A DNA stretch of 64,000 nt, taken from contig JADGBR010000014.1 in assembly GCA_015231405.1 (NCBI GenBank), positions 3,555-67,554 of the forward strand, given 5' to 3'. The translations under genes and the position numbers were made by a program. The stretch is from Candidatus Omnitrophota bacterium. Lineage in GTDB: Bacteria; Omnitrophota; Gorgyraeia; Tantalellales; Tantalellaceae. The stretch's first letter is position 1, and each line of letters starts with the position of its first letter. Below are positions 24,308-49,600 of the stretch, in pieces. The notes beneath the pieces were generated by a model. That model searched no databases. It was not told where the DNA came from and worked only from the letters and a program-made list of their open reading frames with translations.

Positions 24308-24637
24308 TTATGCAGATGCGAGCCGGGTTTTAACTTTTGCAGGTTGTTGCTTGAAAGTTATCTCTAATTTCGCATTACATGCCTGCGCTATCTTATTCAA
24401 TAAAGTTACCGTATAGCCTTTATATGCCCCGCTTTCATACCTGGATATGGCGGATTTTGTCGTATGTATCCTTTTGGCCAGTTTCTCCTGCGACAAGTTA
24501 GATTCTTTCCGTAACTTGGCTATTTTCTCAGAGATCAACAGTTTCTGATACTCAGCCTCAAATCGGATACGGAATTTTTCGTCCTGCAATAATTCGTCAA
24601 GATATGTCATCACTTTTTTCTTATCCATAATAAACAC
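24308..24637 (-). CDS. XRE-family HTH antitoxin (HigA-like)
   Basis: 109 aa with the HTH QEKLAKRIHTTKSAISRYESG. Overlaps the upstream toxin gene by 17 nt. Confidence 0.8.
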   Translation of the reverse strand: MFIMDKKKVMTYLDELLQDEKFRIRFEAEYQKLLISEKIAKLRKESNLSQEKLAKRIHTTKSAISRYESGAYKGYTVTLLNKIAQACNAKLEITFKQQPAKVKTRLASA

Positions 24638-25010
24638 CTCGCTTGTTTCTTTCTAAATATCTGTATCTCATTTTAATCGATTTAGCCAATTCCTTCTTAT
24701 CAGACTTCTGTGTTTTCTTTCTATAACCATTGGTAATAATTATTTTTCCGCCCTCAAAATAGAAATTAAAGAACCTGTAATGCATCGGCTTGAATTCATA
24801 GATCTTCTCGTTTTTGTCCACTATCCTAAATTTATTCTCGTCATGGATCTGGCCCTCTTCCGCCATTAATTTTACCAAAGCGCCCAATTTTAATTTTATA
24901 TTTATCGGCAACGCTTTAATAAGTTCAAGCGCGGGAATATTCCCATATTCATCATAATAGAATTCAACCTGGAATCTCTCCCCCTGATAATAAATATAAT
25001 TACCTGCCAT
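24621..25010 (-). CDS. RelE/ParE-superfamily toxin, phage Gp49/HigB-like (DUF891-type)
   Basis: 129 aa. Toxin-first gene order with an XRE antitoxin. Core IYEFKPMHYRFFNFYFEGGKIIITNGYRKKTQK typical of Gp49-like toxins. Confidence 0.7.
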   Translation of the reverse strand: MAGNYIYYQGERFQVEFYYDEYGNIPALELIKALPINIKLKLGALVKLMAEEGQIHDENKFRIVDKNEKIYEFKPMHYRFFNFYFEGGKIIITNGYRKKTQKSDKKELAKSIKMRYRYLERNKRGVYYG

Positions 25011-25092: not shown

Positions 25093-25749
25093 TCATCTTG
25101 TTTCATGCTCTTTCAAGAGAACTTCTTTTATCATCTCCACCTTTTTATTCCCGACTCCTGGTACTCCCATTAATTTCCGGGATGGCGCATTGACTACTTT
25201 TTCTATGCTTCCGAAATGGTTCAATAGTTTTAGTCCCGTCTTTTCTCCCACATAGGATACATAGGATAATCCTGTCAGGAAGTATAAGGGACGCTTTCCC
25301 GGTTTTTTGGTTTTTTTACCGTGCCTTTTTCTTACTTCCCCGGCCAAGTATTCGTTCTGCGCGGAGATCAGGCTAAGAAAGGTAGCTGTTTCTTCCGGAT
25401 CTTTTGAGAAGATAACCGGGATCTTCCATTTTACTGATATACTCACAAGTGCTCCTTTTATCGCGTTAGGATGCATGCTATTTGAAATATCCTGGAATAA
25501 CGGGTCGCCTTCGATCAATACTAGCGGCCTTTCGTAATATTTTTTTAATCCCAGGGCTTGCCTGAACAATCTCCCGTCTATAATAGAATTCACGAATTCT
25601 GTCGTTGTCTTCCTTTCGATCACTACATTGTTGTTTATAATGTAATCTCCGAAGTTCAGGTTTTCTACCGTAATATTCGCACCGATCTTATCTTTTAAGA
25701 TCTTATAAACCCCGGATTACAGTTCTCTGATATCGACTTTAATTTTCAT
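25093..25749 (-). pseudogene. ERCC4/XPF(Hef)-type nuclease with HhH2, interrupted by an in-frame TAA at codon 11
   Basis: In-frame minus-strand reading from ATG 25749..25747 gives MKIKVDIREL*SGVYKILKDKIGANITVENLNFGDYIINNNV, continuing into VIERKTTTEFVNSIIDGRLFRQ ... GVPGVGNKKVEMIKEVL. This has the ERCC4 motifs GDY, ERK and DGRL, plus a C-terminal HhH. The stop TAA sits at 25719..25717. The listed ORF 25093..25623 begins at an internal GTG and lacks the GDY motif. Confidence 0.65.
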
Positions 25750-26392: not shown

Positions 26393-26674
26393 TCAGGCTA
26401 TACGTATCTCAAGTCGCCTGCCTAACGCTTCAGCGGTTTTCTCAAGAGTCGACAATTTGATATCTTCGGCGTGGTTCTCCAGGCGGGAAATAGCTCCCTT
26501 GTATGTGTTCATCTTCTCGGCAAGCTCCTTCTGAGTAAGGCCTTCCTTCTCCCGGGCCATCCTCAACATGACACCGATCTTGAATTCTTTATACCCACGG
26601 TCGAAGGTCTTAGCGAACCTTTTGCTCCTCTTCTTCCTCTTGTCTATATATCTCTGCAGGTCGCTGTTCCTCAT
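26393..26674 (-). CDS. XRE-family HTH antitoxin (HigA-like)
   Basis: 93 aa with the [24 protein letters not shown], downstream of a RelE-like toxin gene. Confidence 0.8.
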
Positions 26675-26703
26675 TATAATTTACTCCCGTTTTGTATTAA
26701 TGT

Positions 26704-27045
26704 TTATCTGCTAAAATATTCTTCTATCATTTTCTCAGCTCTCTCGATCTCTTCCCTCGGGATCTTATCCGTCTTCTTTACCATACCGTGCGTAAGAATG
26801 ATATCATTACCCTTAAAAAAGCCGAACAACCGGTAAATATTCGAACCCGACTTTATCCTGCACTCCCAGATGTCCTTATCGAGCTTCTTATAATATTGCC
26901 CGGGGATAGGATGTAACTCCTCCAGTATTTTCAATACCCACAATATCTTCTCTGCCGCTTTATCGCTTAATGTATCTAAAAATGTCTCTACGGGTTTCTC
27001 CCCGGTCTTTTTTATATAAAAGATTACTTTTCTCACCATGAGCAT
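26704..27045 (-). CDS. RelE/ParE-superfamily toxin (HigB/Gp49-like)
   Basis: 113 aa. WECRIKSGSNIYRLFGFFKGNDIILTHGMVKKTDKIPREEIERA, the typical RelE/HigB core. Toxin-first operon with an XRE antitoxin. Confidence 0.7.
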   Translation of the reverse strand: MLMVRKVIFYIKKTGEKPVETFLDTLSDKAAEKILWVLKILEELHPIPGQYYKKLDKDIWECRIKSGSNIYRLFGFFKGNDIILTHGMVKKTDKIPREEIERAEKMIEEYFSR

Positions 27046-27247
27046 AGGTTAACATACAAGTTAACCTTATGCAACTTTCTTATGTGCGTTATTGGTGCGT
27101 TATTGGGGTCAGACCTCATCTTTACACAAAATATTTTAGCATAGTTTATGATGAAAATAATTTGAAACATTTTTTATGGTTTTGGTGTCTCTATAGGTAT
27201 GGGTTGAAAGCATACCTGATCAGCATTTATAACCAAGGAGGGTTTTC

Positions 27248-28198
27248 ATGGCAAGGCCATTACGCATAGAGTACCCGGGGGCTTTATATCATGTCACATC
27301 CCGTGGCAATGAACGAAAGAACATTTTAATTACTGACGATGATAAATCCGTTTTTCTTGATATTCTGACAACTGCGGCCAATCGGTTCAAGATCGTATTA
27401 CATGCTTATTGCTTAATGACCAACCATTATCATTTTCTCATTGAAACAGCAAAAGCCAACTTAAGCAAATGCATGCAGTATATCAATTCTTCATATACAA
27501 CCTATTTCAACCGGGACAGGAAAAGATCAGGGCATCTTTTTCAGGGAAGATATGGAGCATTGCTTGTTGAGGAAGAAAGCTATTTGATAAAATTATCTCA
27601 ATATATACATTTGAACCCAATAAGAGCAAAGTTAGCACGTCATCCCGCTGATTACAAATGGAGCAGTTATAGATTTTATAAGCATTGCGAGCCCGGCAAG
27701 CCTGATTTTCTCGATCTGCAAAAGACCTTAGGGTATTTCAATGATGACCGTGGATTATACGCCGAATATATTGAGGAGGCTATACAGTCTAAAATAGTGG
27801 ATTTTTTACCGGAAGCTTTTGCCGGCTTGATATTGGGCAGCCAGGATTTTATCGACCAAATTAAAAAGAAATATGTGGACAAAAGAAAGAATCCGAGGGA
27901 CCTCCCTTCGCTCCGGAAGATAAACAAGACGGTCATTTGCCCTGATAAAATAATTGAAATAATCAACGCCAACTCGAAGGATATCCAAAATAAATATCGT
28001 ATAAAATTACTGGTTCTTTTCCTGAGGAAATATACAGATTTGACTTTGGCCGAGATCTCTAAAACCATAGGTACCGGAAAAACACCACCGGCTATCAGCA
28101 ATATATTCTATAGATTGGATAATGACCGAAACAAGAATGCCCATCTCAACGAACTGATAAATATTCTAGAAACAGAAATGTGTAAAGATGAGGTCTGA
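27248..28198 (+). CDS. HUH (Y1) transposase of the IS200/RayT (COG1943) family with a long C-terminal extension
   Basis: MARPLRIEYPGALYHVTSRGNERKNIL ... CLMTNHYHFLIET (HuH motif HYH) ... catalytic Tyr region. 316 aa, longer than minimal TnpA. No obvious terminal hairpins identified. Confidence 0.7.
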   Translation: MARPLRIEYPGALYHVTSRGNERKNILITDDDKSVFLDILTTAANRFKIVLHAYCLMTNHYHFLIETAKANLSKCMQYINSSYTTYFNRDRKRSGHLFQGRYGALLVEEESYLIKLSQYIHLNPIRAKLARHPADYKWSSYRFYKHCEPGKPDFLDLQKTLGYFNDDRGLYAEYIEEAIQSKIVDFLPEAFAGLILGSQDFIDQIKKKYVDKRKNPRDLPSLRKINKTVICPDKIIEIINANSKDIQNKYRIKLLVLFLRKYTDLTLAEISKTIGTGKTPPAISNIFYRLDNDRNKNAHLNELINILETEMCKDEV

Positions 28199-28424
28199 CC
28201 CCATTACGGACCCCATTACGACCCATCATTTTTACTCTATCAACTCCAAAAAAAATACTTATCACTCTTTATTATCCTAACAGAATAGGCAAAAAATTTT
28301 TGTTGCTTACTGCTTCAGATGTTTTTGATTCATTTTTGTCTTTCTACTCCTTTGCAATTATTCATCTAGTGCAAAAATGAGGTTTGACCCTCTTACTTCT
28401 ACAGCAGCGTCATGTGCAACTGTT

Positions 28425-28886
28425 CTATAGTCCTTTCAACATTTCTTCGCTTCTCTTTCTTGTGTACTCAACCAGCTTTTCTCTATTCGCAAAATAGTCT
28501 GAAGCTTTAAAAAGACTTAGTATTTTGGGGAAATACTTTGTTGCCAATACGGAATAATTTTCCAACTGCTTACGTTGTCTTTCTCCATAATCCTCAATTC
28601 CTTCATCAAACTCACATCTTTTCAAATCATTTTTATCAATACCCAAATATTCAAATAATAGTTTTAACCCAAATGTACTTGATTTCATCTGAATCGAACT
28701 AATTCCTATTAATATTTCACCTCTATCGGTATTAATATTTACATATATGTTATTATTTTTATAAAGAGTGCAGGAATTCCCAAAATTTTCTTTATCGACT
28801 GCATAAGACACAAATTCAAAATTGTATTTTTTAAATATATCAGAAAAATATTTGTTAATTTCATCTTTTAAAATAAAATCTGACAT
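28425..28886 (-). CDS. Putative immunity protein for the adjacent polymorphic-toxin C-terminal tip
   Basis: 153-aa cytoplasmic ORF beginning 15 bp after the stop of the giant toxin gene, on the same strand. It lies in the same AT-rich segment as the toxin tip. No recognised family. Confidence 0.55.
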   Translation of the reverse strand: MSDFILKDEINKYFSDIFKKYNFEFVSYAVDKENFGNSCTLYKNNNIYVNINTDRGEILIGISSIQMKSSTFGLKLLFEYLGIDKNDLKRCEFDEGIEDYGERQRKQLENYSVLATKYFPKILSLFKASDYFANREKLVEYTRKRSEEMLKGL

Positions 28887-28900
28887 AAATTCCCCTTTTG

Positions 28901-31900
28901 TTACTTAATTAACCAGAAATAATTTTTCCCTTCTCGCATTACAATTTTATATTCTTTACTAAGCAAGTAATCAATTTCTTTTCGCAGATATTTACCAGCT
29001 AAAGCATAAGGTGTAGTGACATAAAACGCACGGGTTTTTAACATCGCTCTATCTAAGAACTTTCTGTTCATCTCCCAAAGTTCATCTTCATTCATTATTT
29101 TAACAAATTTCTTCCATATTTTATCAGGAATACAAAAATAATTTGCATTTATTCTTTTTGCAACTTCTATATATTTATATTTACCACTATTTATCCAAAT
29201 CCCGTAATTACTGCCCAGAACAGTAATATCTTTCCCAATATTTCTATATGATTTTAGCCCATTTCCGGCTGCTTTTATAGCATTTAATGGCACCACTGTT
29301 CCAACTGCTAATAATGATAAAGCTGCTTCATCTCTCTTTCCTCTGGATAAATAAATTAAACCATTTATTGCGTCAATTGTATCACCAACTCCCGGAACAA
29401 CTCCAGCCCAATCTAAATATGACTGCATTACGTCAAATGAACTGTCAAATATTGCTTCATTAATGCCACCGGCGTTAAATGACACATAACCGATTTTATA
29501 ATTAGCAGGCGATAAATACCCTTCCGATGTTAATATGCTTTCGGCTGACTCATAGCTATTATTAAAAACATCTTCCGGCTTAACTGATACTCCGTTTATT
29601 GTTAATTCATAATCCTCCCCTGCCAGCCTGTTGATCTCGGCAATCATTCCATCTTCCGTCAAGATGACCTTATCGTTTATCTTTACTTCAACACCTTTGC
29701 TAATGGCAAGCTTAGCGCTTTCGATGAGCGATACCCTTCCCGTCGCGTCCATCATCGAATCCCAGGACGAACCGAACATTTCGCTGAAGGCGTAGTTGTC
29801 GCCGTCTACTTTCAGGTCGACGATTTTGCCGGTATTCGGATCGTAGACTGTTGTGTAATCGATGAATTGGCCGGCATCGTAGGATAATTCTGATTCCGTT
29901 ATTTCCAGGATTTGATAATTGGCATCATAGAGAGTTACCGTGCCGTCTTCGCTCGTTACTCTTGTGTTGCCGTTATCCAGGCACTCGACTTTCGTGGATG
30001 TATAGCTATTAATGCCTTTCGTTATTTCCGTTTTTGTTATTTTCCCGGCATCTGTCTCTACTATATTCATCGTTGTAGCGTTATACGTAAAAACAGCCTT
30101 GTTGCCGGTATTAATGTCGATTAAGGTTATTTGTTTTGTGCCGTCGGAGAGGGTTTTCTCGCTTTCGACGGCTCCTTGGTATTTATCCCGTAATTTGTTT
30201 AATTCGGCATTTATATTTTCATAGTGTATTTCACGTATTGCTATTTCATTCTGCATGTACTGCCTTGTCCCATCTAAACCGGCGCCTATCACGCTCGATA
30301 CGGTCATCTGGAGCATATTGCTGTACCATTGTTCACCATATTTGTTTTCGAGCGCGTTCATAGTTTCCGTGGATATAACCTGTGAGGCTGTATTAAAGAA
30401 GACTTCAGTCGCGAACATGGCGGTCGAATTCAGAATTTTCATATCAAAAGCTGGGTTGGCGAAGGCGTTTACGGGCATTAGGGTGATGGCGGCGGCTAGG
30501 CCTATGCCTAGTTTACTTAGCCAGTTGTCTGATTTGGAGATCTGTTCCATGGCATAGTTTGAGATTCCGCTGGTTATCATGCCGCCGAGGTAGTTTCTGA
30601 CGGCGTCGCCTAGTAAGGCTTTTGGGGCGAACTCAGTACTGATCCAGGGGTTAAGGGTATTCTTTAACCAGTTTCCGGCGGATTGGAAACCTTCCGCGGC
30701 CTGGCGGCATAGGGTCATTACTCCGCCGATCGCTTTTTGGCCGATTGATATTAAATTGTCCGTAATGCCCAGAGTTATCTGGCCCAGGGTTCTTCCGACT
30801 GCGCTGAGACCAGTCCAAATTCCCTCCATCATCTGGCCTGCCATACCTGCGATCGGCGCGGCGACGAATGCCGTAGCGGCGGATAAGAATATTGACGCTA
30901 CTCCCATTCCCATTATTGTCATCGCCTGGCCGTATTGGCCGTAGCAGATGGCTGTGGCCATGTTTGTTACGGTGTTCATGATCGGGTATGCTAGGGTTCC
31001 GCCCGATATCACCGACATTACTGATCCCACCACCAACGCGCCGATCGCGCCGGCTACTCTTCCCCATTTGCCTTCCTGGGCGGCGTATTTGATGGCGTTG
31101 ATCATTTGGACTACGGGTTGGATGATGTTGGTTACTATTTTTTTGACGGCTTTTACTATGCCTTCGAAGATCTGGGTTACTTTTTTCCAGAGTTTGTCCC
31201 ACCAGCCGGCGGCTTTTATGTCTAGGAGTTGGGTGTCGGTTAGGCGGTTTTTGTAGTCGCTGCGGGCGGTGGAGAGGGTGGTGCCTTCGTAGTTTTTCTT
31301 GAATTCGGTTAGGGGTATTTGTTTGGTTTGTTCGATGTTGTTTATGTAGCTGTTGGTGACTTTGATGTGGGTTATGGTGCCGGTTGTGTCGCGGATTACT
31401 CCGGTTACGGTTAGGAAGTGGGTGCCGTTGTAATGGACTATTATTGGGATTGCTTCGTCGCCTTCGGCTCCTCGCAATGACGGGGCGTCGGCTCCTTGCA
31501 ATGACGAGGCTTGACGGATGAAATCATCAAATGTGTATTTTGAACCGTAAACGTCTAGGCCGTGTTTTTGGGATACTTTTTTTAGGGCGTACATGGTTAG
31601 GAGGAGCTGGCCTTGAGTCTCGGAGGTGATGGCGCCGGTGATTAGGTCGACGAAGATGAGTTGTTGTAACAGGTAGTTCATTATTGACAGAGATTGCTTC
31701 GTCGCTTCGCTCCTCGCAATGACGAGGGCGGCTTCGTTGGCTTGCAATGACGCGTATAACGCCTCGGCGGCGCTTTGGCCGAAGTGGTTGTCCTGGGTTT
31801 TTAGCCGGGTTATGATGATTTGGATGTCTTCTTTTGTTATGTTGACGAGGAGCGACGGGTCGATGTCGTAGCCGCGCTCTTTCAGATATGCCGGCTTATC

Positions 31901-34900
31901 GGAGGCGGCGAGGTAATCGGCGAGGATGCCGGTCGAGGTGCCTGCTTCGGTTTCGGTATAGAGCGAATTTATTATCACGGTGATCTCGGCGCGGCGTTTC
32001 GCGTATTCGCTTGCCGGGTCGGACGCGTTACGGATGTGTTCGCGTTCGGACTCAAGCGTTAAATTGTTCGAACGCATATGCGCGAGGGTTTCGGTCAGTT
32101 CCTCGTCTGTCGCTTCCCTGCCTAACTCTTCGCGGTATATTTCGGAAATGTATTTCTTGTCGTTCCTGCCCTTGGCGGCGGTATAGGCGGATACGGCGTT
32201 ATTGTATCCTTCTTTTATGAGAGATATCCCGGCACTGAGGGCGGCTGTAAGAACCGCTCCGGCGGATAAAGCGACATTGTAACAAGTAAGCATACCGGAT
32301 AAACGGGCGGCACGCTCTAGCGCTAGTGTTTGTCCTCCCGTATCTTTAGGGCCGTTCTTGTACTCGGTGAGGTTCTTTATATAATCCCTTACAAAGTTCG
32401 TGTAACCCGTTTTCCTCCATTCACTCACGCAGAAGGTGAGCTCATCGCTCGCAGGCGCGCGATACAACATAGCGGCAAAATAATCCTTTACGCGCGAAAC
32501 GACGGCTTCTTCGTCCCATGACTTGCCGTTATTCATGAATACCGTGTCGCTCCCGTCCACTTTCACTTTTTCTATGTTATTCCACCTGTCGCGCGTGTAT
32601 TCGTACGAGTAGTTCCTGCCGTCCTCGTTATAAAGAGTAATGTTCCCAAGAGCGTCATACCTCATGTAATAGTCTTTCGTGTCCTTCCCGGAAACATCCA
32701 CATCCATGCCCGCGAGATTGCCGTTCGGGTGGTAAGTATAGCTGTATTTTTTCCTTGTGGCGTCTAGGGCTTTGAATTCGCGCTGGACGACGACCGGCTG
32801 GCCCGTATCGGCAGGGCCTCGCGCGCTTAACTCGAATATCTCGGCATAGGCGTTATTATTATCGCCGTTCCAGGCCCGGGCAGTTGCCCTTACCCTTATA
32901 GCCGTGACATTCGCGAGCGTGCCGTGCCATGTACCGCTAAAACAGACATCGAACGCCCGGCAGCCCGAAGTCCTCGCGACGTCGACCCATACGGATGAAC
33001 CTGCCTGGAGGTATTGTACGTTCATGTCGTACGATTCGCCGCGGCCGCCTGAATCGGCGCTCACCCTCGTATTGTAATATATCTCGCTCAGCGTGACCGG
33101 CTGGGCGAACTCGTGCGTCGAGGTCACATCGGCGTCGGGACTGAAACTTTCGGACGAATATGCCGTGGTATCGTAACCGTCATAATCAAGCGACGGGTTC
33201 ACTCCGCCCGTGGATGTATGTTTCGTACCGTCCAGGAGTATCATGTCATTCAGTGGGTTCTCCCCGGGTACAGGTTTTTTATATACAGAATATGTCTCTT
33301 GGACATAATTCACGATTTTGGATACCGATGCGACAAAACCCGTATCATCCCTGGTATAGGCATATCTGGCTATGTACGGGTCGTCCAGCGCGTTTATGTC
33401 AGAGGAGCCCTTATTGCCGAGGAGGCTGAAATATCCCTGGCCTTTACTCGCTACCCATGTTTTGAACGTCATGCCGTTATACGTGTAGCCCGGAACGAGG
33501 AATAGATCCCTGGCTTCAACTGTTTCTTCCCAGAGCCTGCCGAGGATGTTCCTTTCAGCCAGGATGTCGCCTCCGGCTCCGTATACTTTTTCAAGGCTTG
33601 ATGCGCTCCCTGGATATACGATAGGGGTCACGACAGCTGACGATTCGTTCACGAGGAGCTCTTCCGTTAGGACGCCTTTCGGGTCGTACAGTTTCGCGGC
33701 GGCTCCGGTATAGGTCGATATCTCGTAACGCGACCTCGGGATACCGCTTGAGTCCGTATTTTCGTAAGAGATCATAGTTCCGGAAGGTCTATCCTTATCC
33801 GGATACGTATTATCCGCGTATTTGGCGAGATCAGCGTATAGCCTCGAGCCTGAGCCCTTCGCCCACGCGAGCATCGTATCCGTAGCGTAACCATTCGGCG
33901 GGTAAGTATCCGATGCCGTATCAAGGATCATCAATTCGTCGACGTTCATCTGGCGGTTCACTTTACCGTCCGAAGCGGCGCCGTAGACGGCTTCAAGTTT
34001 CACGAACCTGGCTTTCCGCGGCGATATAAGGTCCTCGACCCAGCCGGAATAGAGCATATCCGTCCTGTCGGTAGCCCCTTCCCAGTTAACGCCGTCCTCC
34101 GAAGTGAAAATCCGGTATTTATACGAGTTGCCGTCGTCCCTGAACTTTATCCTGAACTTGCCGATGTCCGTAAGGCCTCCAAGGTCAAGCCTGAAGTACG
34201 GGAGAACCGTGTCGTTATCCCAGCGGATAGAGGCGCTGCCGGCAGTGACGGAGTAATCCGTAAGATACGAAACGTTATCCGACCAGCTGGCGGAAACCGG
34301 GGTCACGGATGTCACCATATGGCCTTTAGAGCCTTTCTCGAAATATTCCTTTATGAGCGGAGAATTCCTGTTGGCGTAATCGCTGATATATCCGGCTATC
34401 CTGGGGTCCTCAAGGGCGCCCGTGAACCTGGCCCATTCGGAGACATCCTTACCGGAAAAATAGTTGTTCAACTGGCACTGGCTGTTCGGGTTGATGAAGA
34501 GCTTCTTTAGGTCAGGGCGTTCCTCCCATAAAAGCATGAGGGCGTTCTTTTCACTCACGGCCCTCCCGTATTTATCGAGGTCGCTGACCCTGACGGTCCC
34601 TGAAACCTTTTCCGTACGGTACACTTTCACTTCGTTCAGCTGCATCGCCGTCGTCCAGTATTTCTCATTGGCGTTCTCTATTCTGATGTACCTGGCGGCG
34701 ACAGGCGTACCGAAACTGTCTATGAACCAGTCATTATCGGTATTGAGGTCGGTCGTCTTTATCTTGATCCAGTTATCGGGAGCCTCATTCGTAGCGTAAT
34801 AAACGGTATAGGGATAATTGTACGGGCTTCTGAACGATAAGCCGAGCGCGCTCACATTATCCTGATCGGAGCCGTTCCCGGTAAGGTCCAGAATGATGGA

Positions 34901-37900
34901 TGTCCTGTCCGTAGGCATCGAATATTCCCAGCCGAAATTCTGCCAGTTATCGTATTTATCGTCGACAAGCTGCCAGGGATCGACTCCAAAGTAACAATTC
35001 CTGACCGATATGTTCTTAATCTCAACGGGTTTTAGCGCGTCTATTTTTTCGCCGGTTGGCGCTACGGATTCGTAGATTTTTTTCACTTCGCCTCCGGATC
35101 CAAACTGGTAGGCGTAATATGTCACATCTCCCCGCGGGGTAGTCCTCGATATGATCCTTCCTGAAGCGTCATAATCTACCGAAGAGATGTCCATCTTATC
35201 GTTATTCCGGCCGTGGTCTACCGTAACCAGACGAGCCAGATCGCCCTTTCCGTTTTTCTCCGCGATATAAGTATAAACATTCTTCAGACGGTCGACCCGT
35301 TTCACAAGATCGCCTTCGATAGAGTAATATTCCTCTTCGACGTAGTCCTGAACTCCCTGGCCGTCTATTGTTTCCTGCCATGAAAGAAGGCGTTTTGTCA
35401 TGTTGCCGCAAGTATCGAATTCGAGGCTCACGGTAACGGTTTTATCGTAGGTGTCGGTGACTGATATGATCCGCCCGTATTTATCCATTCCGTATACGGT
35501 CGTACCACCAAGCGGAGCGCGTTCGGTTTTTAGGGTTATCCCGCCATGTTCCGGGGAACGGCCGTATTCATAAACCGTTGTCAGCCCCAGACGATCGGTC
35601 ATACTTATGAGATCTGATGTAACTGCGTCAAAGACCCTTAACACGGACCCGTCATAGCCCCCGCCAACTGTTCCGCGCGGATCATATTCCCGGCTGGATG
35701 TTACGGCCCCCCAGGGAGTCACCGAGTATTCATAGGCTGACGGCGTGCCGTTTTTGTCTACTGAAAGCTTGATACGTCCGAAAGAGTCGTATTCGTTAAC
35801 GACGGAGGTGTATAGACCGGACGGACCGGTTCGATATTCCGTGGCCTTTATAAGATCGCTCTTCCCGTCGTATGTATTCAGGTATGTCGCAATATGACCA
35901 TTCGCGTCGGTCAGGGATATCCTGTTCCCTTCAGTATCGAACTCTTCTTTCTCGACGGCGTCCGGAGATAAGGACGTCTTTGTGTACCGTTCGATCGTGC
36001 CCCCCTTATCGTCCTTTTTAACGGCATAGCTCAACGTGACGCCGTTCGGCGACACGACGATTGTCACGTCGCCGGAATTGTCATACCGGTATACGGTAAC
36101 ACCCGAGTAACGGATGTCGGTTTCGGTCTTTTCCGAAAGAACTCCTGTGATCTGGTCATATTTATAGGAATATGTCCTTGTGATATCGTCTTCGGAGCTT
36201 GCCGGGTCGTTCATCTCGGTAACGCGGGATTCCGTGCCGTCGGGGTTATAATCGGTGACGGTTATTTTTCCGGAAGTGCCGGAGACGAATATCACTTCAG
36301 TTATAGTTTTCGCCTCGTTGCCGTAACGGTCGTAGATATATCGGGTGGTCCTCTTTATGCCGTTCTTGTCGGTGAAGCCGGTAATGTCGCCGTTCGCGTC
36401 ATATTCGGATGTTTCGGTATAATTCATGAGGATACCGGATCCCGAGAGGGCCGCGGATGACGTCGTATCTTCTTTTCTGGCAGTGATCTTGCCTGAGGCG
36501 TCACGGATAAATGTATATGTCTTCCTGATGCCGTTTGAGCCGGTCACCGAGATCACGTCGCCGCGCGTATCGTATCCGGTGGTTTGGCTGAAACCGGGAT
36601 AAAGAACGTTCCCGGCGACCGTCTTTTTTATGTACCCGAGAACGCCATCACGTTCATAAGAGTAGGTCACTTTCATGCCGTTACGGTCGGTCTCGGATAC
36701 GAGATCCCCTTTTTCGTCGTATTCGGAGACCTTAACGCCGGCCCTGCCGTTCACTGTCTCGTATCCTGCCTTTACGCGGCCGAGTTCGTCTTTCACGTAT
36801 GTGTATCGCGTAACGATATCGTCCGATACGTTCGCCGGGTCATTGGCTTCGGTAAGGCTCACGAGGTCGTTATCGAAATCGTAAACGCGGACGGTACGGC
36901 TTTCCGAAAGGCCCTCGGGGAGAGACCCGTCAAATGAAGACCGCCTGTAACGCGTATATCCTTTAGACGGATCTTTCGCGTCAATAAGCCCGTAATAGCT
37001 TTTCTCGGTCTGGACCTTACCGCCCATGGCGTTCTCGGCGTCGGTCGAGTATTCGTATTCTGAATAGACACCTTCGGTGTCTATCGAGGCGATAATATCG
37101 CCTTTCGTGTCTGATTTCTTCAATGAAACGGCGGTGTAACGGCTAGCGCCTTCGTCCCATGAGACGGTTTCTTTAGTTATCGTGAGCACGCCTTCGGCGT
37201 CATAGGTATACTCATATGAATATGTCTTCCCGCCGCTTGTCATTGTCTTAACCGCTCCGGAAGCTGTGGCTTCGGGGTAGATCGCCTTATCGCTATCCTC
37301 GCTGCCGTAATATGTATAGCTCTTCACGGCGAGGATCGTATCCGTATTTCCCCCGGCAAGGTTATATGGCCTGTATCTCACCGTCTCGGTCTTACCCGTG
37401 ATATTCCCGATCGCATTCCTGACATAAGTGATATCAGTAACGGTATCCCCGTCCATTCCTTTCATGGTCACATTGATGACATCTCCGTTCGCGGCGTACC
37501 TTTTCTCCGTCCTCGCGGAATAAAGGCCGCTAGTAAAAACACTGTCGGTCAGGTTACCGTCGCCGTCGTAATTGAAGTCTTCCCTGCCTTCGCCGGTGGT
37601 CCTCGTCTTCACAAGGACCTTACCGTTATATACCGCGTAGAACGACTCTATATCGGTCTTATACGTTGTCCCCGAAAGGCCCATTGTTTCAACCCTGTCT
37701 AGAGCGCCTGACGTTTTATAATGGTATATCTCCCTGACCTGGGCTTTCCCATCGGGGGAATAAACGCCCGGGGCATAAACTGAAGTCTCCTTTATATTCT
37801 TACCGGTATTTGAAATATCGTATGAGGTGACCTTGACGATATCGTCCGAAACATTGTCGGTACCGCGGGTATCCGTCGCGATCGACTCTTTAATCCGGCC

Positions 37901-40900
37901 GGTCGTATCATCGTACCGGTACGTCACCTCTTTTAGGAGTATGCCGCCGCCGCCTCCCGGCCGGAGGATCCTTTCGCCCGTTAGGACCAACGGGTCGGCG
38001 CCGGTATGGTCGTAATATGTGACTGTCCCGTCGGGCCTATCGGTCTCGATGAGCGTTTTTCCGTCAGGTGAATATTTCATGACGACGGTCGACGAAACGG
38101 CGTTACCGTCCTTATCGGTATATGATACGGTTTCAGTTGTTACGGTTGACGGTTCGACGTCTAAAGGCTCGTAAGTATACGTCCGCTTTACGCCGTATTT
38201 ATCAGTCTCGAGCGTCACGCGGCCAAGGATATCATAACCGTGATCGAGCGCGTAATTCACGCGATATACGCCGGTACTATCCTTCTCGGAATAAACCGAC
38301 TTTTTGGAAATTATATGACCGCCAGTGGTATCATAGGTGTATGTATAATCGATCCTGATCCCCGCGGGATCTATCTGGGCGGCGAGATCGCCAATATGTC
38401 CCGAAGACGAATCCGCGCCGTAATAAGAATAGCCCATACCGGGACGAGCCCCGTCACCGATCTCTATCAGCTGGCCGCGGTCGTTGAACTTTTTTGAGGT
38501 GGTTATCATTACCGGAGGAGCGCCTTCGGCACGCTGGGTGAGAATACTCCTCTCTTCCCGCAGGTATTCCAGCGGCGTCCCTTGGTTCTCATATGACGGG
38601 ACCATCTCTTTAATAAGCCCTTTTTCGGTATCTTCGTCATAGACAAGATAGCCCTTCGCGTCGTATTTTTTCACGGTAACGGTCTTTGTGCCATCAACGG
38701 TCTTTGTTTTTTCCGTAACGGTCTTAAGGGTGATAGCGCCTGTTTTATCCTTCAGATATGAGTATTCGGTCATAACGCCGGAAGGTTCCGTTACCATTGC
38801 CAAAAGTCCATCGGCTCCATATGACTCGCTCGTGACTTCCTCCTTCCCGCCGGCATCTAGCCGGGTAATAGCGCGCGAGATCATCGCGCCGTCGGAATCG
38901 TATGAAAAATCGGTTCTTTCCTCATCGGCCATGCCCTTATTGACGGTTATACTGATCTCGCGTCCGTCTTTGTCGTAAATAGTTTCCTTAGAGCCAAGGA
39001 ACGTTCCGTTCGAGCCTGTAACAGTTTCCTTCTCGGATAAAAGGCCGCCTTTCGCGTCGCGCGAATATGAGTAAGCGGTCACGTTGCCTGAGCTATCCGT
39101 ATACGACAGGGTATCACCCGTGGCCGGGTCGAAAACGGTAGTAACCGATGTCGTATACACTGAACCGACGATATCCGCCTCGGATGTTATTACCGTTTCG
39201 CTTCTGAGCCTGCCGATATTATCCCGCACGTAAAGATACGCATCCTTCTTCCCGGAAGGATAGTCTATTTCCGACACGCCGCCGCGGCCGTTATATTTGT
39301 ATGATGTCACAGATCCCGGACCTGAAGCCGTACGCTCGTTCTCTTCCGTAACATTGCCGTCAATGGCATAGAGAGTTTCATAGAACGTTATGGGATCCTC
39401 ACTGCCCGCTATTTCGGTATATTTGATCTCTTTCGTCACGCGGAGATATTCATCCCGCGTTATCCGGTCGTGCTCTATGACGGCCTTTACAGGGTTCCCG
39501 GCCGACTTATCCGCTCCCGTGGCGTAGACATTCGTCGTTTTGATAATCTCATCAACGTTACCGGACGTCGAATACGCGTAAGTTATAAGCGTAGTCACTT
39601 CACTCCCGGAATAAGTATCCGACTCGGACGACAAACTCCCGTCGCTATTATAAACATAATTCACCGTATTTCCGTACGGGTCCGTATGGCTTATGACTCT
39701 CTTCTTCGCGTCATATTCGGTTATTTCCGTAAAGTCCACGTCATTACCTGAAGCGTCCTTATCCTTTACCCTCTTTTCCGCGATGAACCCGCCGGGAAGG
39801 GTCGAGGTGGAGTAGGCGCAAGTGATGATCGGCGTTTCCGGCGACCCGTCACGAACTATAACGGGTCCGGTCGGGCCGTCGAGATAATGAGAAGGGACAT
39901 TGAAGCTTTCCGTGAGACGTCCTGAGCTGTCATACCGCTCGAGAGTCATCCTGCTTTTCTTTATGTCCAGGAAACGCTTTTCCATTACGGCTCCGTCGGC
40001 ATTTTTGTCATATTCATAGACGAACGGTTCTTCGGCGCCAGGGCCTAATTCACTTAGAATGTCACCGTTACTATCATATGTGTATGCCGCGGTTGAGCCG
40101 GCGACCGTTTCGGCATTATCTGCCTCACCACTCAGCAGTTTTCCAGTGCGGCTGACCACCTGTCCGTTCTTGTTATAACGGCTGATAACATAGTACTCTA
40201 CCGCTCCAGGACCCGTGACATGTTCTGTCCCGACAATAATATCCTCTTCGGTTGTGTAAGAGGCTGTTATGTACGGGGAAGAGAGATCCTCCAGGAGGTA
40301 TGATATACCACCGTCAACGATCGCCCCCGGGGCGTACCGGTAACTTTTAACAAGGCCGAGAGCTTCGTTATAGTGATCCGTTACTGTAACGACACCGCTC
40401 ACGGCATCCAGATATACTGATGAGATCATAGCGCCGTTATCATACGTATATTCATATAGACCCTGCAACCGGTTCGATACGGTATCCGAAACGATATTGC
40501 CGTACAGATCAAATTCACATACCCTGCCGAGAGAATAATCGGTATATCCCGACATTTTCCCGGAAGCGTTATACTCAGTATCAGAATACAGTTTGCCGTT
40601 CCGGAGATATAACTTCTCCAGGGATACCTTATCCGTACCGTCATGGTAGGAATAGATGACATATGACCCGTCGGACATAGTTTTTTGCGTCAGATAAGTG
40701 GCCGCGTCGTTGTAATAAGTTTCTATCGTGCCTGACGCAGCGTCGGATACGGACTGTATCCTCCCGTCCATGTCGTTGTAATAAGAGTATGTTTTAACCA
40801 GTACCGTACAATCCCCGTCGGAGTAGACCTGTTTGGTAAGTACCCTGCCGAATGTGTCGGCATTGTAGGTGTATTGGGAAGACAACTCGCCGCCCCGAGC

Positions 40901-43694: not shown

Positions 43695-46600
43695 CTACAC
43701 CGGCTGCTCGACCGTTGTTCCGGCTCCGGCTCCCTGGAATTGGCCTTCGCCGTAAGTGCCCGCGGCGGTTCCCTGTATCTCGTTACCCTGGAACTGGCCG
43801 GTTACACCCGCGGACCACTGGTTATCGGCCCACTGTAAACCTGTAAGGTTGACATTATAGTTCTCCGACTGGAACGCCGCTCCCCAGGTGCTCGTATCCG
43901 TCACGCCCTGATCATATGTGCCGTTTATGATCGCCGCCCATATGTTGGTCGCGTCGAACGAATACAAGTTCATGTCCATTGTAGCCGTCTGTATCTGGCC
44001 GTATACGGAAGTCGCCTGCATGGCCTCGGTTATCGGTATCATCACGTCGTTGAAATTGTTGATAATATCCTGCATCTCCGTCACGATATTGGCAAGGTCG
44101 AGAAGCTCTTCGGCTTCCACCCATTCGCCGGCTACCGCTCCGCCAAACTGGGCGCTGATCTCAGCTCCGTCTTCGGCCTCGATATATTCGCCCTTCGTCG
44201 CCAGGACAGCGTCGCCTTTAATGCTCCCGAATCCCTCAGGTGATACCCAGAGACCGGTAAATTTCCCGTCCATGTGGCCTTTAACCGCCCAGCTGTCACC
44301 CGAAAGAGTGGCAAGATATGTGACATAATCCCCTATTTCTCCCGTCATCGGCATTTTCCACGCCGAAAGGTCTCCCTGGTATTCTCCTTCGATATTCGCC
44401 CCCCATATGCCCCAATTCGCACCGGAAAGGGATAATACAGGTCCGCCTTCGGTAAATTCCCCGGCCATATTATCGTTATAACCATACCCATGTATCCAAT
44501 CCGTTTCAACCATGTCATAAAGGTCTTCAGGCATTATGCTGCCGGCATAGGGCATTTCCCTGTAAATATCCACGGCTCCGTTTAGCTCCAGCATATCGAT
44601 GGATTGGTATGTCGTCCCGAGGAATTTCCCACCTATATATCCTACCTTGCTCTCTCCCGTTCCCTGGTCGGGCGGAGTGACAAAGAACGCTCTCATGAGA
44701 CTAGCGGCAGTACCACCCATAACGTAACCTCCCATAAGGCCGTAATAAGCGCCGCCGTCATAAGTCGTATAAGATTCCTCGTCATAATTCTCGCTGGTAA
44801 GGCCCGTACCCCAAACGAAAATACTGTTAGGATCGACCTCTCCGAGTTCATATTCGCCGATAAATAAAGCCGGGGTCGTTGCCCCGCCCCACAGGCTCTC
44901 CGTGCCGCCGAATATACCCCTTATACCGCCGCAGGCGTATCCTTCATTTGAAAGTTCGGTTTCCACCGAACTCGCGAAAGAAAGATGTTCATCCTCGTAT
45001 ACTCCCAGCACCGAAGCTATGAAGGTACCGGACTCGACTGTTGGATCGGAGGTATTCTCCCCAAAAAGGTCACCCTCGATGGTCGTAAGGTCCGTCATCG
45101 ATAACCCTTTACCCGTAAGCTTTCCGAATATCAGGTTATCGGCTTCCGGACCGTTGTATTCCCATCCGCCGTTAAGCCACCTTATCTGGTAGTAGTTGTC
45201 GATGGCATCGCCCGAAACAGCCTGCCAGGTAGTTTCCCCGGCCGGCCTATTCTCATAATAATTGGAGTCCCCGAACTTCATCTCGAAAGCGCCCCATTTC
45301 CTCCCATCGATGGAATAACTGTACCCTTCGGAAAGATTAGCTCTGATATAGCTGTCATTGCCGCTGCCGAACGACCCCACAAAAGTCATAGGGTCGATGT
45401 TCTCCTCCTGGATCATTCCGCTTAGATCCGCCGGGTCTATCCCTGAATCTTCTTCCATTACGGTAGCCGCTATCGTCCCCTCGAGTATCCACATACCCAG
45501 TTCCGTGTAGTACTCGCCGGCGAGAAGCCCGCCGTTCGCCCTCATTTGAGCGATATCGCTCAAAAACGAGCCGGATAACAAGGAACCGTTATAGTTCCTC
45601 AAATACCCTATTTTCCCGTTCGGATCGGCGTATAGAGCCAAAAACCCTCCGGTCATCTTGCCGTCCATCAGAACCCCCGCCGATACGCCTTTAAAAGCGC
45701 CGCCGTCAAAAGTGACATACTCATCGTCAACTACGTTATAGCTTTCCACGGGAGTGTGCCAGAGATAAGCGCCATTCTCATCCCCCTCGACGTAAAAGTC
45801 TCCCATAGCGCGGATAGTCGCCGGGGCGTTCCACGGGCTGGATGTGCCTCCTATAAGGCCCGTATCTTCACCCTCCCATCTGTAATAACCCGCGTCATTG
45901 GAGTATATGCTGCACTCGTTCTCCCCCCACACTCCGCTGAACCAAAGGCGCTCCCCTTCCCAGGAGCCCGCTCCGCCGGCCTGGAAAACTGTAGATCCCT
46001 CATAGTTGAAACAGTTGCCTATTCCCACGCCGGATATATCTCCCATTTTCGTCCCGGTAAGGAACTTACCCGCGGCCGTAAAACTGAGATCGCCGTTGGA
46101 GAGAATGCCGTCCTCTGTTTCCATTATCCAGTAACCGTGATCCTGGCTATAATCATACCCCATATTCCCGCCCATCCATTGCGACTGAGCTGTTTCTGTT
46201 CCCGGAGCCGGAGGAGTACCGAGGATATCTTCCAGAGAATCGACTCCCGGGGTCCATGTGCCCGTGATAGTTTCATATGAACCTTCTTCGTTCTGGAAAT
46301 ATTTTTCCCATGTCCCGTCGGCCTTATAGCTGAGCTGATAATATTCACTTCCATTCTGGCGGTAATACCTGGCATACCCCTGGGTGTTATCCAGCGAATA
46401 GGAATAAAAATAGTCGCCGTCATATCCGTAGTATCCCCCGTTCCAGTCGTAGTAATAGTACTGCCCGTCATGTTCCGTAGTCGTAAGGTAAGCGCCTATC
46501 GGGTCATTGCCGCCAAGAACCGCCGAAAATCCGGAGTTCTCCCCCTGCTGATAGATATATCCCCATATTTTCTGGTCGTATATACCCCAGTCGTAGGTCT

Positions 46601-49600
46601 TGCCCTCGTCCCAATTTATGAGCGACGACGTATAAAAGTTATCGCTGCCCTCTATGGACCCTTCTTCGCCGATATGCCCAAAAAGGGATCCTTCACCCTG
46701 TTCCGTATTGTATATGTACTCGCTGATATCCGATGCCGGGATGTCGGTATACTCCGCTTTCTCTCTTGCGTCCGTCATACCTGTCATTTTCCACATCTCG
46801 AGGCCCGGATATGCCTCTCCTTCGAGATAGCTTGAAAGAACGCCGGCCTTATGGTCCGGAGATATGTATATCGCGGATAAATATCCGTTAAGCCGGGTAC
46901 CTTTCCAGGATCCCACGGTCGTCCCGTAAAAAGCGCCGCCGTCAAGTGTGCTGTCATCGTCGGCTAAAACGTTATAGCTCGACACCGGCGTATGCCATAT
47001 GCTCTCTACAGGTTCTTCGTCGTTGAAGTAATACTCACCCATGGCCGTGATCTCAGTGCTGGCTGTCCAGGGAGAAAGTATTGTTCCAATAAGTCCCGAA
47101 TCCTCTCCTACCTGTTCCATATAACCATAATCGGAATTATAGCGGTATAGGCTGCTTATGTCTTGCCCTCTTCTCTCATTTGCTCCCCATGTTCCGCTTA
47201 GTTTAAGCTGATCCCCTACCCATACTCCGAGACCCACTCCCTGCCAAAGCCCGGTCGAGTCGAAAGCCTGGCCCCAGATATCACCCACCATATGCGACAA
47301 TCTCGTATAACCGAGGAAATAGCCGTCTAGAGTCGCGTTCAACGCTCCTTCCACATTAGTTCCGTCGATAGGAGCTATCCAGTATCCCCGGTCGCCTTGT
47401 AAACTTTCGTAGCTTGAATTACTGGTATATACTGTGATCGCGCCCTCGACCTCGATATTCTCCGCTATTACATCCGCAAGCGATCTGGATGTATCCCAAT
47501 TGCCGGACAAATAATTCCCGTTGCTATAATCATAACCGGAATATGTCCCATCGCCGTCATAACTCAGGTAATACTCACGATATCCAAGGTCACTATAGGT
47601 GTACACATACTGATACCCTGAGTTGTTATTCGAGTCGTAATTGTAGTTAAAACTACCTGAATTATAGCCTTCCGACGAGGCGAAATAACCGCTAGCCTCA
47701 AAATGTTCGTACGCGCTGGCTACGCCTATACTGTCGTATCCGCCCATAACGGCCGAGAAAGCGGTATCCCCGTTCGGATTTGAGAAGTTTCCCCATAAAG
47801 TCTGGCTGTATATGCCCCAATCCGCTGAAACCCCGGTTTTCGTATTGACAAGCGAAAATTCCTGAAAATTATCCTGGCCGGTAATGCATCCTCCGGTCTC
47901 GAAACCTCCGTCAAGATACCCGGCGTCATTGTTGCCATAGTGGTAAAGATTTTCCGGCGCCACGGTGTTCTCGGCGTCCATTACTTCAGGCGTCAAAGTT
48001 CCGTCAGCCTTCCACATGTTTATCTCATCGAGAACGGTACCCGACATATCGCCCTTTAAAATACCGGCTTTACCGGAAGGGTCGATATAGACAAGAAGCG
48101 TTTTCCCCTCCAAGGCCAGGCCGTCTACAAGTCCGGCCGACCATCCGTAGAAAGCTCCGCCGTCGGGAGTCGTGTTGTTACCCAGATTCGCGTTATAGCT
48201 CAGTATCGGTGAAAGGAAAATATACGGGTCCGTCGAGATCTTATTGTCGCCGGATAATTCCCCCATCGCCCGATAGGACTCTGTGGAATCCCAGGGAGAG
48301 ACCGCCGCGCCTATGATCCCGTATTCGTGCGTTACCCACCTGAGCTCTCCGTTGTCGTTATAGTAGACGCTGTCATTGTCAGAACCCCATCTCCCCGCGA
48401 AAGTCAGATCTTCACGGGCCTGCCATACCCCGGTGCCGACGCCCATCCAGCTCGACCCCTCGGTATCGTATATGCCGAACACGTCTCCGGACATCGTCCC
48501 GTGCCAGAGGTATGTCAGTATCTCTCCGTCAAGCTTGCCGGAATATTCGCCGTTAGCGTAGGAGCCGTTGTTTATATCGGCTATCCAGTAACCATAGTTC
48601 ATATCGCCTTCGCCGCGTTTACTTTCATCCGTCAGGACGGCGTTGTCCGCGTCAGGGGGCGTCGAGACTATCTCCTCAAGCGTTTTTGTCGTATCCCATG
48701 TCCCTACGAGCTCCCTTCCCGCGTTGTAATCATATCCCTCATAATGCCCGTCTTTGTAATAGGTGATGTAGTAACTCTCGCTATCGCCTCCGTCGTAGTA
48801 GTCCCCGTTATCCCTGTAATAATTCACGCTGGCAGAATGGTTGTCCGTGTAATAAGAGACCTGGTAATAACCGGTACTGTCGCCGTTCTCGTCACGATAT
48901 TCATAGCCCTTTTCTACGTACAGATACGGATCGATCGTCCCAAAAGGATCGGTCCCGCCCCCTATCACCGCCGAAAAACTTCCTTCGTTATCCGGGTTGT
49001 TATATGTCCCGGCCATCCTCTGGTAATATATACCCCAATCCTGCGATACCCCCGCATTGAAATTGACTATATTCATGGTCTCAAGATTCTCGTCCCCGGT
49101 AATACTGCCTGTCCCTTCGCCGAAACTTCCGGATATCGCCGCTCCTCCCTGCCCGGTTTGCGCGGAAAGATACAGGTCTTCCGGATCTACGCCCAGATCA
49201 CCGGAAGCAACCATCTGGGTGGGAGTTATTGTCCCTCCTGCCGTCGCGAAACCGGTTTCAGGATAAGTTTTACCGGAAAGGTGTCCTTTAAGATATCCAC
49301 CGTTACCGCTCGGGTCTATGTACAGCCCTATAAAATATCCTTCCAACGCGCCGGCTTCAGTACCAAGGATACGTCCTACATAAGCTCCACCGTCATAAGT
49401 GGTGTAGGTGTCATCATTATAATTATAGCTAAAAAGGTCCGATCCCCAGACATGCCCGTAGCTATTATCCCCGCACGAATATTCCATCAAGAGATACGCC
49501 ATCGCGCCGTCTCCCCACATAGACCCAGTCCCTCCCAAAAGACCGTTTAGATTCCCTGAATAGTCCCAGTTGACGTAACTGTTCTCATACTCGACGGAAT

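Follow-up and report, generated by a model that had tools for sequence, protein, structure and literature searches.

What does the 3' end of a giant gene encode when its base composition departs sharply from that of the gene to which it is attached, and how did it come to be there? The question is raised by a stretch of 64,000 nucleotides (nt) from a Candidatus Omnitrophota bacterium (assembly GCA_015231405.1, contig JADGBR010000014.1, positions 3,555 to 67,554), here called the window, in which an open reading frame (ORF) of 4,834 codons is followed on the same strand by one encoding 153 amino acids (aa). Our analysis indicates that the end of the giant gene, from about position 29614 onwards, and the 153-aa gene are very probably one polymorphic-toxin cassette gained by recombination, which would comprise a linker, a 42-aa pre-toxin junction module, a toxin domain of about 110 aa (the tip) and the cognate immunity gene. 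Judged from their sequences and genomic context, the tip and the 153-aa ORF are a genuine toxin and immunity pair. Polymorphic toxins with immunity cassettes are a well-known kind of system; the specific toxin and immunity families described here are unnamed.

Sequence composition

The GC content is 0.340 in the last 747 nt of the 4,834-aa ORF (28904-29650) and 0.508 in the remaining gene; compared with 747-nt windows along the gene (mean 0.505, standard deviation 0.031), this last segment lies more than five standard deviations lower. The break was located by maximum likelihood, fitting a single change point to the GC content at third-codon positions (GC3) of the ORF. It was placed at codon 4597, corresponding to position 29614 approximately (2-lnL interval 29605-29623), where GC3 falls from 0.604 upstream in the gene to 0.236 downstream, with a log-likelihood ratio of 62.9; in 200 permutations this ratio averaged 2.6 and never exceeded 6.35. 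A change point fitted to the plain DNA lies close to the GC3-based position, at 29613. The drop is most marked at synonymous third positions and abrupt, taking place within about 20 nt, and the junction stands 237 aa before the C-terminus of the giant protein. A first-pass annotation, made by reading the sequence, had described an AT-rich end on a gene of about half GC, with a junction near 29650, some 250 aa from the C-terminus; neither the windowed GC nor the GC3 profile is flat, and the position was right to within about 40 nt. Its AT-rich interval, from about 29650 to 28425, was correct as to the start and too short at the other end, since low GC continues past 28425 to about 24300. The elements discussed in the following are these:

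28901-43405, reverse strand: carrier gene, encoding the 4,834-aa protein (ORF list; Pfam and NCBIfam scans, hydropathy, motif search)
29605-29623, reverse strand: compositional junction, proposed as the 5' limit of the acquired cassette (change point in GC3 at codon 4597, in plain DNA at 29613)
29414-29604, reverse strand: AT-rich linker, aa ~4598-4664 (GC 0.38; alignment coverage zero upstream of aa ~4638)
29288-29413, reverse strand: putative pre-toxin junction module of 42 aa (aa 4665-4706), DWAGVVPGVGDTIDAINGLIYLSRGKRDEAALSLLAVGTVVP (phmmer matches in tip-bearing and other proteins)
28904-29287, reverse strand: predicted toxin tip, aa 4707-4834, with a folded core at aa ~4724-4834 (relatives, alignments, AlphaFold2 model; GC 0.292)
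28887-28900, reverse strand: spacer of 14 nt between the toxin stop codon (TAA, 28901-28903) and the ATG of the immunity gene, with an AAGGGGA ribosome-binding site (direct reading)
28425-28886, reverse strand: predicted cognate immunity gene, 153 aa (profile score, blastp clustering, hydropathy; GC 0.277)

Upstream of the main junction, inside the carrier, GC3 shows a partial dip at 29950-30250 (0.40-0.46 versus about 0.64), which may either be the trace of an earlier recombination or result from the composition of the segment encoded there.

The tip family

The last 132-249 aa of the giant protein yielded no match in Pfam, NCBIfam or the PDB sequences, to known non-toxin domains or otherwise. 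Searches of Pfam at E ≤ 10 with the tip as a single sequence, as a profile, or in the form of all 40 family members gave nothing significant, and those of NCBIfam and the PDB were likewise empty. A word-index search across 5.8 billion proteins returned no match with the tip and only 30 short fragments with a profile of 40 tips; this was a failure of sensitivity and not a sign of orphan status, as an exhaustive HMMER scan of 1.84 billion cluster representatives (50% clusters, E ≤ 1e-3) revealed relatives in 383 of them. The tip had been called unclassified, which holds for Pfam, NCBIfam and the PDB sequences; it belongs, all the same, to a large family. A phage collection gave no match.

Of the 150 best matches, 145 have the domain at the very end of the protein, the alignment stopping a median of 9 (maximum 22) residues before the C-terminus, and the lengths of the proteins in this set range from 81 to 4,834 aa. 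Among its carriers are Rhs-repeat proteins that also have DUF6531, proteins in which the Rhs DPxGL core is present, and one with the PAAR-like DUF4280; relatives such as P0003 and P0013 possess the Rhs autoproteolysis motif. On annotated plasmids, the tip forms the C-terminus of BcpA in a Paraburkholderia bcpA-bcpI-bcpO-bcpB locus for contact-dependent inhibition (CDI) and that of a Leptotrichia TpsA-type protein. The occurrence of one tip on different N-terminal carriers, for which the first-pass annotation proposed a search, is thereby borne out for Rhs/YD, PAAR-like DUF4280 and CDI BcpA/TpsA proteins.

Genomic loci were obtained by scanning one genome per species with a narrower tip alignment as query. 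This gave 33 loci from more than 10 phyla, with hosts among the Acidobacteriota, Bacillota, Bacteroidota, Actinomycetota, Verrucomicrobiota, Pseudomonadota, Bdellovibrio-like bacteria, Chloroflexota, a lineage of the candidate phyla radiation (CPR) and Bathymodiolus symbionts. GC3 of the tip lies below that of its carrier in 12 of 16 relatives (mean difference 0.115; Wilcoxon p = 0.011).

Residues G, Y, N and E are invariant in two tip alignments, of 40 and 78 sequences, and F is invariant among the 40; near-invariant positions are occupied by F, W, W, L, D, L, G and Y. The window tip retains all of the invariant residues, as G4731, Y4745, N4780, F4783 and E4810, together with the near-invariant D4785. 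It has a beta-hairpin insertion following the first strand (aa ~4736-4743), which is absent from typical members, and lacks the His that frequently, but in less than half of the members, follows the invariant Gly.

Many family members are short ORFs of 69-130 aa that contain scarcely more than the tip (for example loci L008, L020 and L029, and the P0003 cluster); one short form of 106 aa is found on 73 contigs. Such forms are often still followed by an immunity ORF, and they look like orphan or stand-alone cassettes.

The predicted immunity gene

The product of the 153-aa ORF is identical to NCBI HQL30_07135, annotated as 'hypothetical protein' [Candidatus Omnitrophica bacterium]. According to hydropathy it is soluble and has no signal peptide, and it has no match in Pfam, NCBIfam or PDB-sequence scans. 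Its GC content is the lowest in the window, and the 747-nt segment of minimum GC in the entire 64 kb begins at 28501. The short spacer and its AAGGGGA site suggest that the toxin and immunity genes are co-transcribed, with coupled translation.

The same arrangement recurs throughout the family: in 32 of the 33 loci an ORF of 106-171 aa starts at most about 15 nt after the toxin stop codon, or overlaps it. These ORFs were clustered by BLASTP into three families of 22, 8 and 2 loci, the window ORF falling into the largest (family 1). Against a family-1 profile built from the 21 downstream ORFs of the other loci, with the window ORF left out, the latter scored 50.5 bits (E 2e-14); the top score among 2,000 shuffles was 11.2 bits. 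Its designation as an immunity gene in the first-pass annotation is thus upheld by membership in a family of ORFs placed directly after the tip in 21 other loci.

Tip subfamilies and immunity families go together, the nearest-neighbour tip having the same immunity class in 32 of 33 cases. Between tips of different immunity classes, the differences cluster at the position following the invariant Gly and in the loop beyond strand 3. The two plasmid-borne CDI-type tips are followed by still other small proteins; as these add to the three families above, the tip family is accompanied by at least five unrelated immunity families. An N-terminal hydrophobic segment is absent from all 40 immunity candidates according to hydropathy, and the toxin is therefore taken to act in the cytoplasm. 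A six-frame search of the window with hidden Markov models (HMMs) detected no second copy of the tip or of the immunity gene.

The proposal of a horizontally exchanged module of tip plus immunity gene is accordingly supported by the sharp GC3 break, by the unrelated carriers, by the distribution over more than 10 phyla and by the 50.5-bit immunity match.

The junction module

Homology of the giant protein to other proteins begins at aa ~4638-4658, 40-60 aa beyond the compositional break, and no homologue of the AT-rich linker (aa ~4598-4664) was present among the collected proteins. A glycine-rich motif, DWAGVVPGVGDTIDAINGLIYLSRGK..., begins at aa 4665, 68 aa past the compositional junction, and opens the 42-aa module DWAGVVPGVGDTIDAINGLIYLSRGKRDEAALSLLAVGTVVP. 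Using phmmer, this module was found followed by the same tip in three proteins (P0004, P0005, P0013), and with 48-58% identity in four others (P0086, P0118, P0143, P0151) whose downstream sequence is quite different. Being common to proteins with different C-termini, it behaves as a generic pre-toxin adapter. In the latter four proteins, which are 184-864 aa long, the module is followed by a long helix-rich sequence without a Pfam match and does not lie at the end of a giant protein; from their sequences, they may belong to a different class of toxins or effectors equipped with this adapter.

The first-pass annotation had labelled the motif 'PT-TG-like'. This was not confirmed, since the Pfam model PF14449 finds no match, either within the giant protein's final 249 or 799 aa (E ≤ 1) or in seven proteins with the same junction motif (E ≤ 0.05). 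PT-TG (PF14449; Becerra Soto et al. 2026, PMC13483458) is likewise a short glycine-rich module directly N-terminal to the toxin, published as having Gly, Asp and Arg within about 15 residues; the window module has the same three residues within about 15 residues (GD..D..N...Y..RG) and is also found on proteins with differing tips. It differs in that the PF14449 model fails to detect it or its relatives. By its sequence, it may represent either a diverged PT-TG or a junction module of its own, and we do not file it as PT-TG.

Predicted structure and activity of the tip

Structures were predicted with AlphaFold2 for the window tip (alignment of 40 sequences; predicted local distance difference test, pLDDT, 86.5; predicted template modelling score, pTM, 0.79) and for a typical member (78 sequences; pLDDT 96.8, pTM 0.86). 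Both models are small Rossmann-like alpha/beta domains with the order strand, helix, (strand), two helices, strand, helix and a final beta-hairpin. A Foldseek search of the PDB with the tip model gave no match at E < 0.1. The first-pass conjecture of a new toxin fold therefore stands in one respect, as the family has no close solved relative (Foldseek E ≥ 0.1), and falls in the other, as the Rossmann-like model is no new fold class.

The conserved positions follow strands 1, 2 and 3, at the C-terminal edge of the modelled sheet, the usual place of the active site in Rossmann-like enzymes. The class-specific positions lie in the same loops as the conserved ones, so that the immunity protein probably occludes this face of the domain. 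Among the weak structural neighbours of the model there is a slight leaning towards N-glycosidases of NAD+ or nucleotides. As the best guess at its chemistry, put forward with low confidence, the tip would be an NAD(P)+/nucleotide N-glycosidase resembling Toll/interleukin-1 receptor (TIR) domains, nucleoside deoxyribosyltransferases (NDT) or ADP-ribosyl cyclases (ARC), with E4810, in the [Y/F]xxxE helix following strand 3, as the catalytic residue and Y4745, N4780 and D4785 lining the active site.

The known toxins to be compared are the TIR NADases (SARM1, ThsB), the nucleoside 2-deoxyribosyltransferase/MilB-type hydrolases and the ADP-ribosyl cyclase toxins of type VI secretion systems (T6SS) (PMC12356396, PMC12605009; PDB 9ro8). 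The modelled tip resembles them as a small alpha/beta Rossmann-like domain, in its invariant Glu in the helix after strand 3 with an aromatic residue four positions before, and in a target that appears to be cytoplasmic. With about 97-110 aa it is the shorter domain, and its last element is a beta-hairpin. Several observations weigh against this chemistry. No sequence or profile match to TIR, NDT or ARC was obtained in Pfam (single sequences and 40 members, E ≤ 10), NCBIfam or the PDB; the Rossmann folds of methyltransferases, pfkB kinases and SIS domains appeared at equal Z in the fold searches; and the clustering of the invariant residues in one pocket is a placement that we infer from secondary-structure positions only. 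The [Y/F]xxxE arrangement may parallel the WxxxE motif of TIR domains.

Possible to a similar, tentative degree is that the same cassette carries an undescribed nuclease (DNase, RNase or tRNase) in place of an N-glycosidase. Polymorphic toxin tips most often act as nucleases (Zhang et al. 2012, PMC3482391). The cytoplasmic immunity proteins are for the most part slightly acidic (median isoelectric point, pI, of 5.4 in family 1), the window tip, with a net charge of +10 and a pI of 9.66, is basic, Smr nuclease domains occur among the weak Foldseek matches (E 0.14-0.65), and the PT1 and PT7 tips, which likewise had no database match, proved to be DNases (bioRxiv 10.1101/2021.10.19.465003). Set against these points, the tip has no conserved His and no paired acidic metal-binding motif, and there is no match to PD-(D/E)XK, HNH, BECR or EndoU. 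Charge, considered as a means of telling a nuclease from an NADase, varies widely over the family (net -10 to +14, with pI above 8 in 60% only), which is a mild argument against a generic nucleic-acid binder. The weight left by N-glycosidase and nuclease goes to other activities.

Other candidates were rejected. PT1 and PT7 were ruled out as relatives of the tip, their solved structures being absent from the results of the PDB fold search. A RAP-domain match (E 0.0014), obtained with one of the 40 members, loses significance once 40 tests are allowed for, and it conflicts with the topology of the models.

The carrier and proposed delivery of the toxin

The carrier corresponds to NCBI MBF0216749.1, annotated as a 'discoidin domain-containing protein' in a metagenome-assembled genome (MAG) of Candidatus Omnitrophica, and bears no toxin annotation. 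It has a Sec-type hydrophobic segment at its N-terminus (aa 9-32, from hydropathy), an F5/8 type C domain (aa 3038-3141) and further hydrophobic segments at aa 3705-3731, 4115-4142 and 4161-4190. The Pfam RHS_repeat model matches a single stretch (aa 2229-2251) and TIGR01643 two; a motif search located about 11 [YF]DxxG[RNQ] motifs scattered over aa 965-3583, and three matches to DPxG[LWMIV], at aa 33, 1679 and 3241, all distant from the tip.

On this basis the carrier would be exported by Sec and displayed as a very long YD-repeat/discoidin surface protein. Upon cell contact, its C-terminal piece would be delivered into the target cytoplasm, where the tip would act enzymatically; passage through the membrane may be eased by the hydrophobic segments located 500-1,100 aa before the tip. 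The producer would be protected by the cytoplasmic immunity protein, which probably binds the tip across those loops that line the beta-sheet at its C-terminal edge. What speaks against this route is that the motif search found no match to the Rhs autoproteolysis motif PxxxxDPxG anywhere in the carrier, that neither the Pfam scan nor the motif search detected Rhs core, VENN, two-partner secretion (TPS), PAAR or LXG elements in it, and that the 64-kb window contains no secretion genes of types V, VI or VII (T5, T6, T7).

Alternative origins and functions

The cassette reading has two negatives to contend with. A metagenome scan with the carrier segment immediately upstream of the junction returned no relative, and hence none with an alternative tip; for this reason, exchange at this exact junction is deduced only from composition. 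In addition, no experimental toxicity of any family member was found in the literature. The literature, which was accessible in part, yielded no paper describing the toxin or immunity families, nor do Pfam (2025), NCBIfam (2026) or the PDB contain them; the sequence motifs of the tip gave no literature match, and none in one supplementary file of bioRxiv 10.1101/2021.10.19.465003.

A first alternative would do without recombination, taking the AT-rich stretch for an effect of local amino-acid composition or mutation bias at the end of a vertically inherited gene. High contents of K, N, I and Y in the tip and the immunity protein depress GC at first and second codon positions (GC1 and GC2), GC dips partially already at 29950-30250, upstream of the junction, and no carrier relative with another tip was found. 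Yet the drop is greatest at the third positions (0.60 to 0.24) and occurs within about 20 nt, the low GC runs through the immunity gene into an island with an IS200-like element and toxin-antitoxin pairs, and homologous tips are attached to unrelated carriers in many phyla, mostly with a GC3 below that of the carrier. We consider this explanation very improbable. Even less credit can be given to a surface-display, adhesion or sorting domain followed by a chaperone or an unrelated ORF, which would agree with the lack of a member with toxicity data, the mere discoidin annotation of the carrier and the generic Rossmann-like fold, because the domain forms the BcpA CT in a canonical bcpAIOB locus, comes after Rhs DPxGL cores and after a PAAR-like DUF4280, exists in many short free-standing copies like orphan cassettes, and has a downstream partner that swaps among unrelated small cytoplasmic proteins in step with the tip subfamily, a pattern of toxin-immunity co-evolution and not of a sorting signal.

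Comparison with polymorphic toxin and CDI systems

The cassette reading places the locus among the polymorphic toxins, of which it shows the generic marks: an extreme C-terminal domain that recurs on different carriers, and a small co-varying immunity gene downstream. By its sequence features, the carrier fits best with the Sec-exported, repeat-rich class of these toxins (Zhang et al. 2012, PMC3482391). With the Rhs/YD and Sec-exported toxins, the latter referred to as the type II secretion system (T2SS) class (Zhang, de Souza, Anantharaman, Iyer & Aravind 2012, PMC3482391), it has in common what would be a very long exported repeat protein with YD/RHS motifs, a variable C-terminal toxin domain preceded by a short pre-toxin module, a small cognate immunity gene directly downstream and a compositional break at the boundary of the cassette; the family of the window tip is itself found on Rhs, PAAR-like and CDI carriers elsewhere. 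Unlike Rhs toxins, in which the tip normally comes after an Rhs core with its PxxxxDPxGL aspartyl autoprotease motif, the window carrier has no such core, and it has few recognisable YD repeats in its 4,834 aa. It also differs from both groups in that no orphan cassettes follow the gene, and in that its toxin and immunity families are not among the named families of Pfam or NCBIfam.

The CDI systems CdiA-CT/CdiI and Burkholderia BcpA-CT/BcpI are related through the tip, which has homologues in the BcpA-CT of the Paraburkholderia bcpAIOB locus and in the Leptotrichia TpsA-type C-terminus. The principle predicted for the window is also theirs: a surface filament delivers a C-terminal toxin to a neighbour and a cytoplasmic immunity protein shields the producer. 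In contrast to CDI, the window protein has no TPS secretion domain, no filamentous haemagglutinin (FHA) repeats (neither FHA repeats nor a TPS domain gave a Pfam match in the 4,834-aa protein) and no VENN/(E/Q)LYN junction, and the window contains no CdiB/BcpB gene; the neighbours are a giant FecR-domain protein and a tetratricopeptide repeat (TPR)/beta-barrel protein.

Genomic neighbourhood

Directly upstream of the carrier and on the same strand lies a gene for a 2,850-aa protein with two FecR domains (43695-52247). The 508-aa TPR protein (52312-53838), encoded next to it and also upstream on this strand, weakly matches 'putative beta-barrel porin 2' with its C-terminus. The genes of the FecR protein, the TPR protein and the giant toxin may form an export or anchoring operon. 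Two more very long ORFs, at 6910-13173 and 54071-58951 (2,087 and 1,626 aa), have domains of the pyruvate-phosphate-dikinase/alpha-glucan-water-dikinase type, one of them with a weak, sub-threshold match to the response-regulator receiver domain; they are unusual large phosphotransfer proteins without relation to the toxin.

On the other side, the cassette is adjoined by an AT-rich accessory island, to which a mobile element belongs that is not part of the toxin system:

27087-28220, forward strand: insertion sequence (IS) of the IS200-like type, with a Y1 transposase ORF at 27248-28198 (Pfam PF01797, E 2e-16; 42-nt inverted repeat, 83% complementary)

The arms of the inverted repeat are located at 27087-27128 and 28179-28220, each with a tandem CGTTATTGG motif, and a third, partial copy of the arm end is present at about 28370-28392, between the element and the stop codon of the immunity gene. 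The island further contains two toxin-antitoxin pairs of Gp49 (HigB/RelE-like) and XRE helix-turn-helix (HTH) proteins (24308-25010 and 26393-27045) and, between them, an ORF (25093-25623) for an ERCC4/helix-hairpin-helix nuclease, truncated so that about 50 positions at the start of the profile are missing.

Implications

The tip represents a large unnamed toxin family of at least 383 clusters at 50% identity, spread over more than 10 phyla and paired with at least five immunity families. With two confident models and clear invariant residues, the family is ready for biochemical work. Omnitrophota are uncultured and have been described as host-dependent, with giant genes of unknown role (PMC10066038; bioRxiv 10.1101/2023.11.21.568195). 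In a wider and more speculative reading, which we regard as rather unlikely, the family would form an enzymatic class new among interbacterial toxins, built as a minimal Rossmann-like domain in which Tyr, Asn and Glu are invariant and an Asp is nearly so, with a chemistry new to polymorphic toxins, deployed in more than 10 phyla by CDI, T6SS/Rhs and other routes; in Omnitrophota, it would be borne by a Sec-exported giant surface protein with no dedicated secretion machine, within the host-dependent or predatory lifestyle proposed for these bacteria. For at least one Omnitrophota giant gene, the cassette offers a concrete, testable reading as an antagonistic surface weapon.

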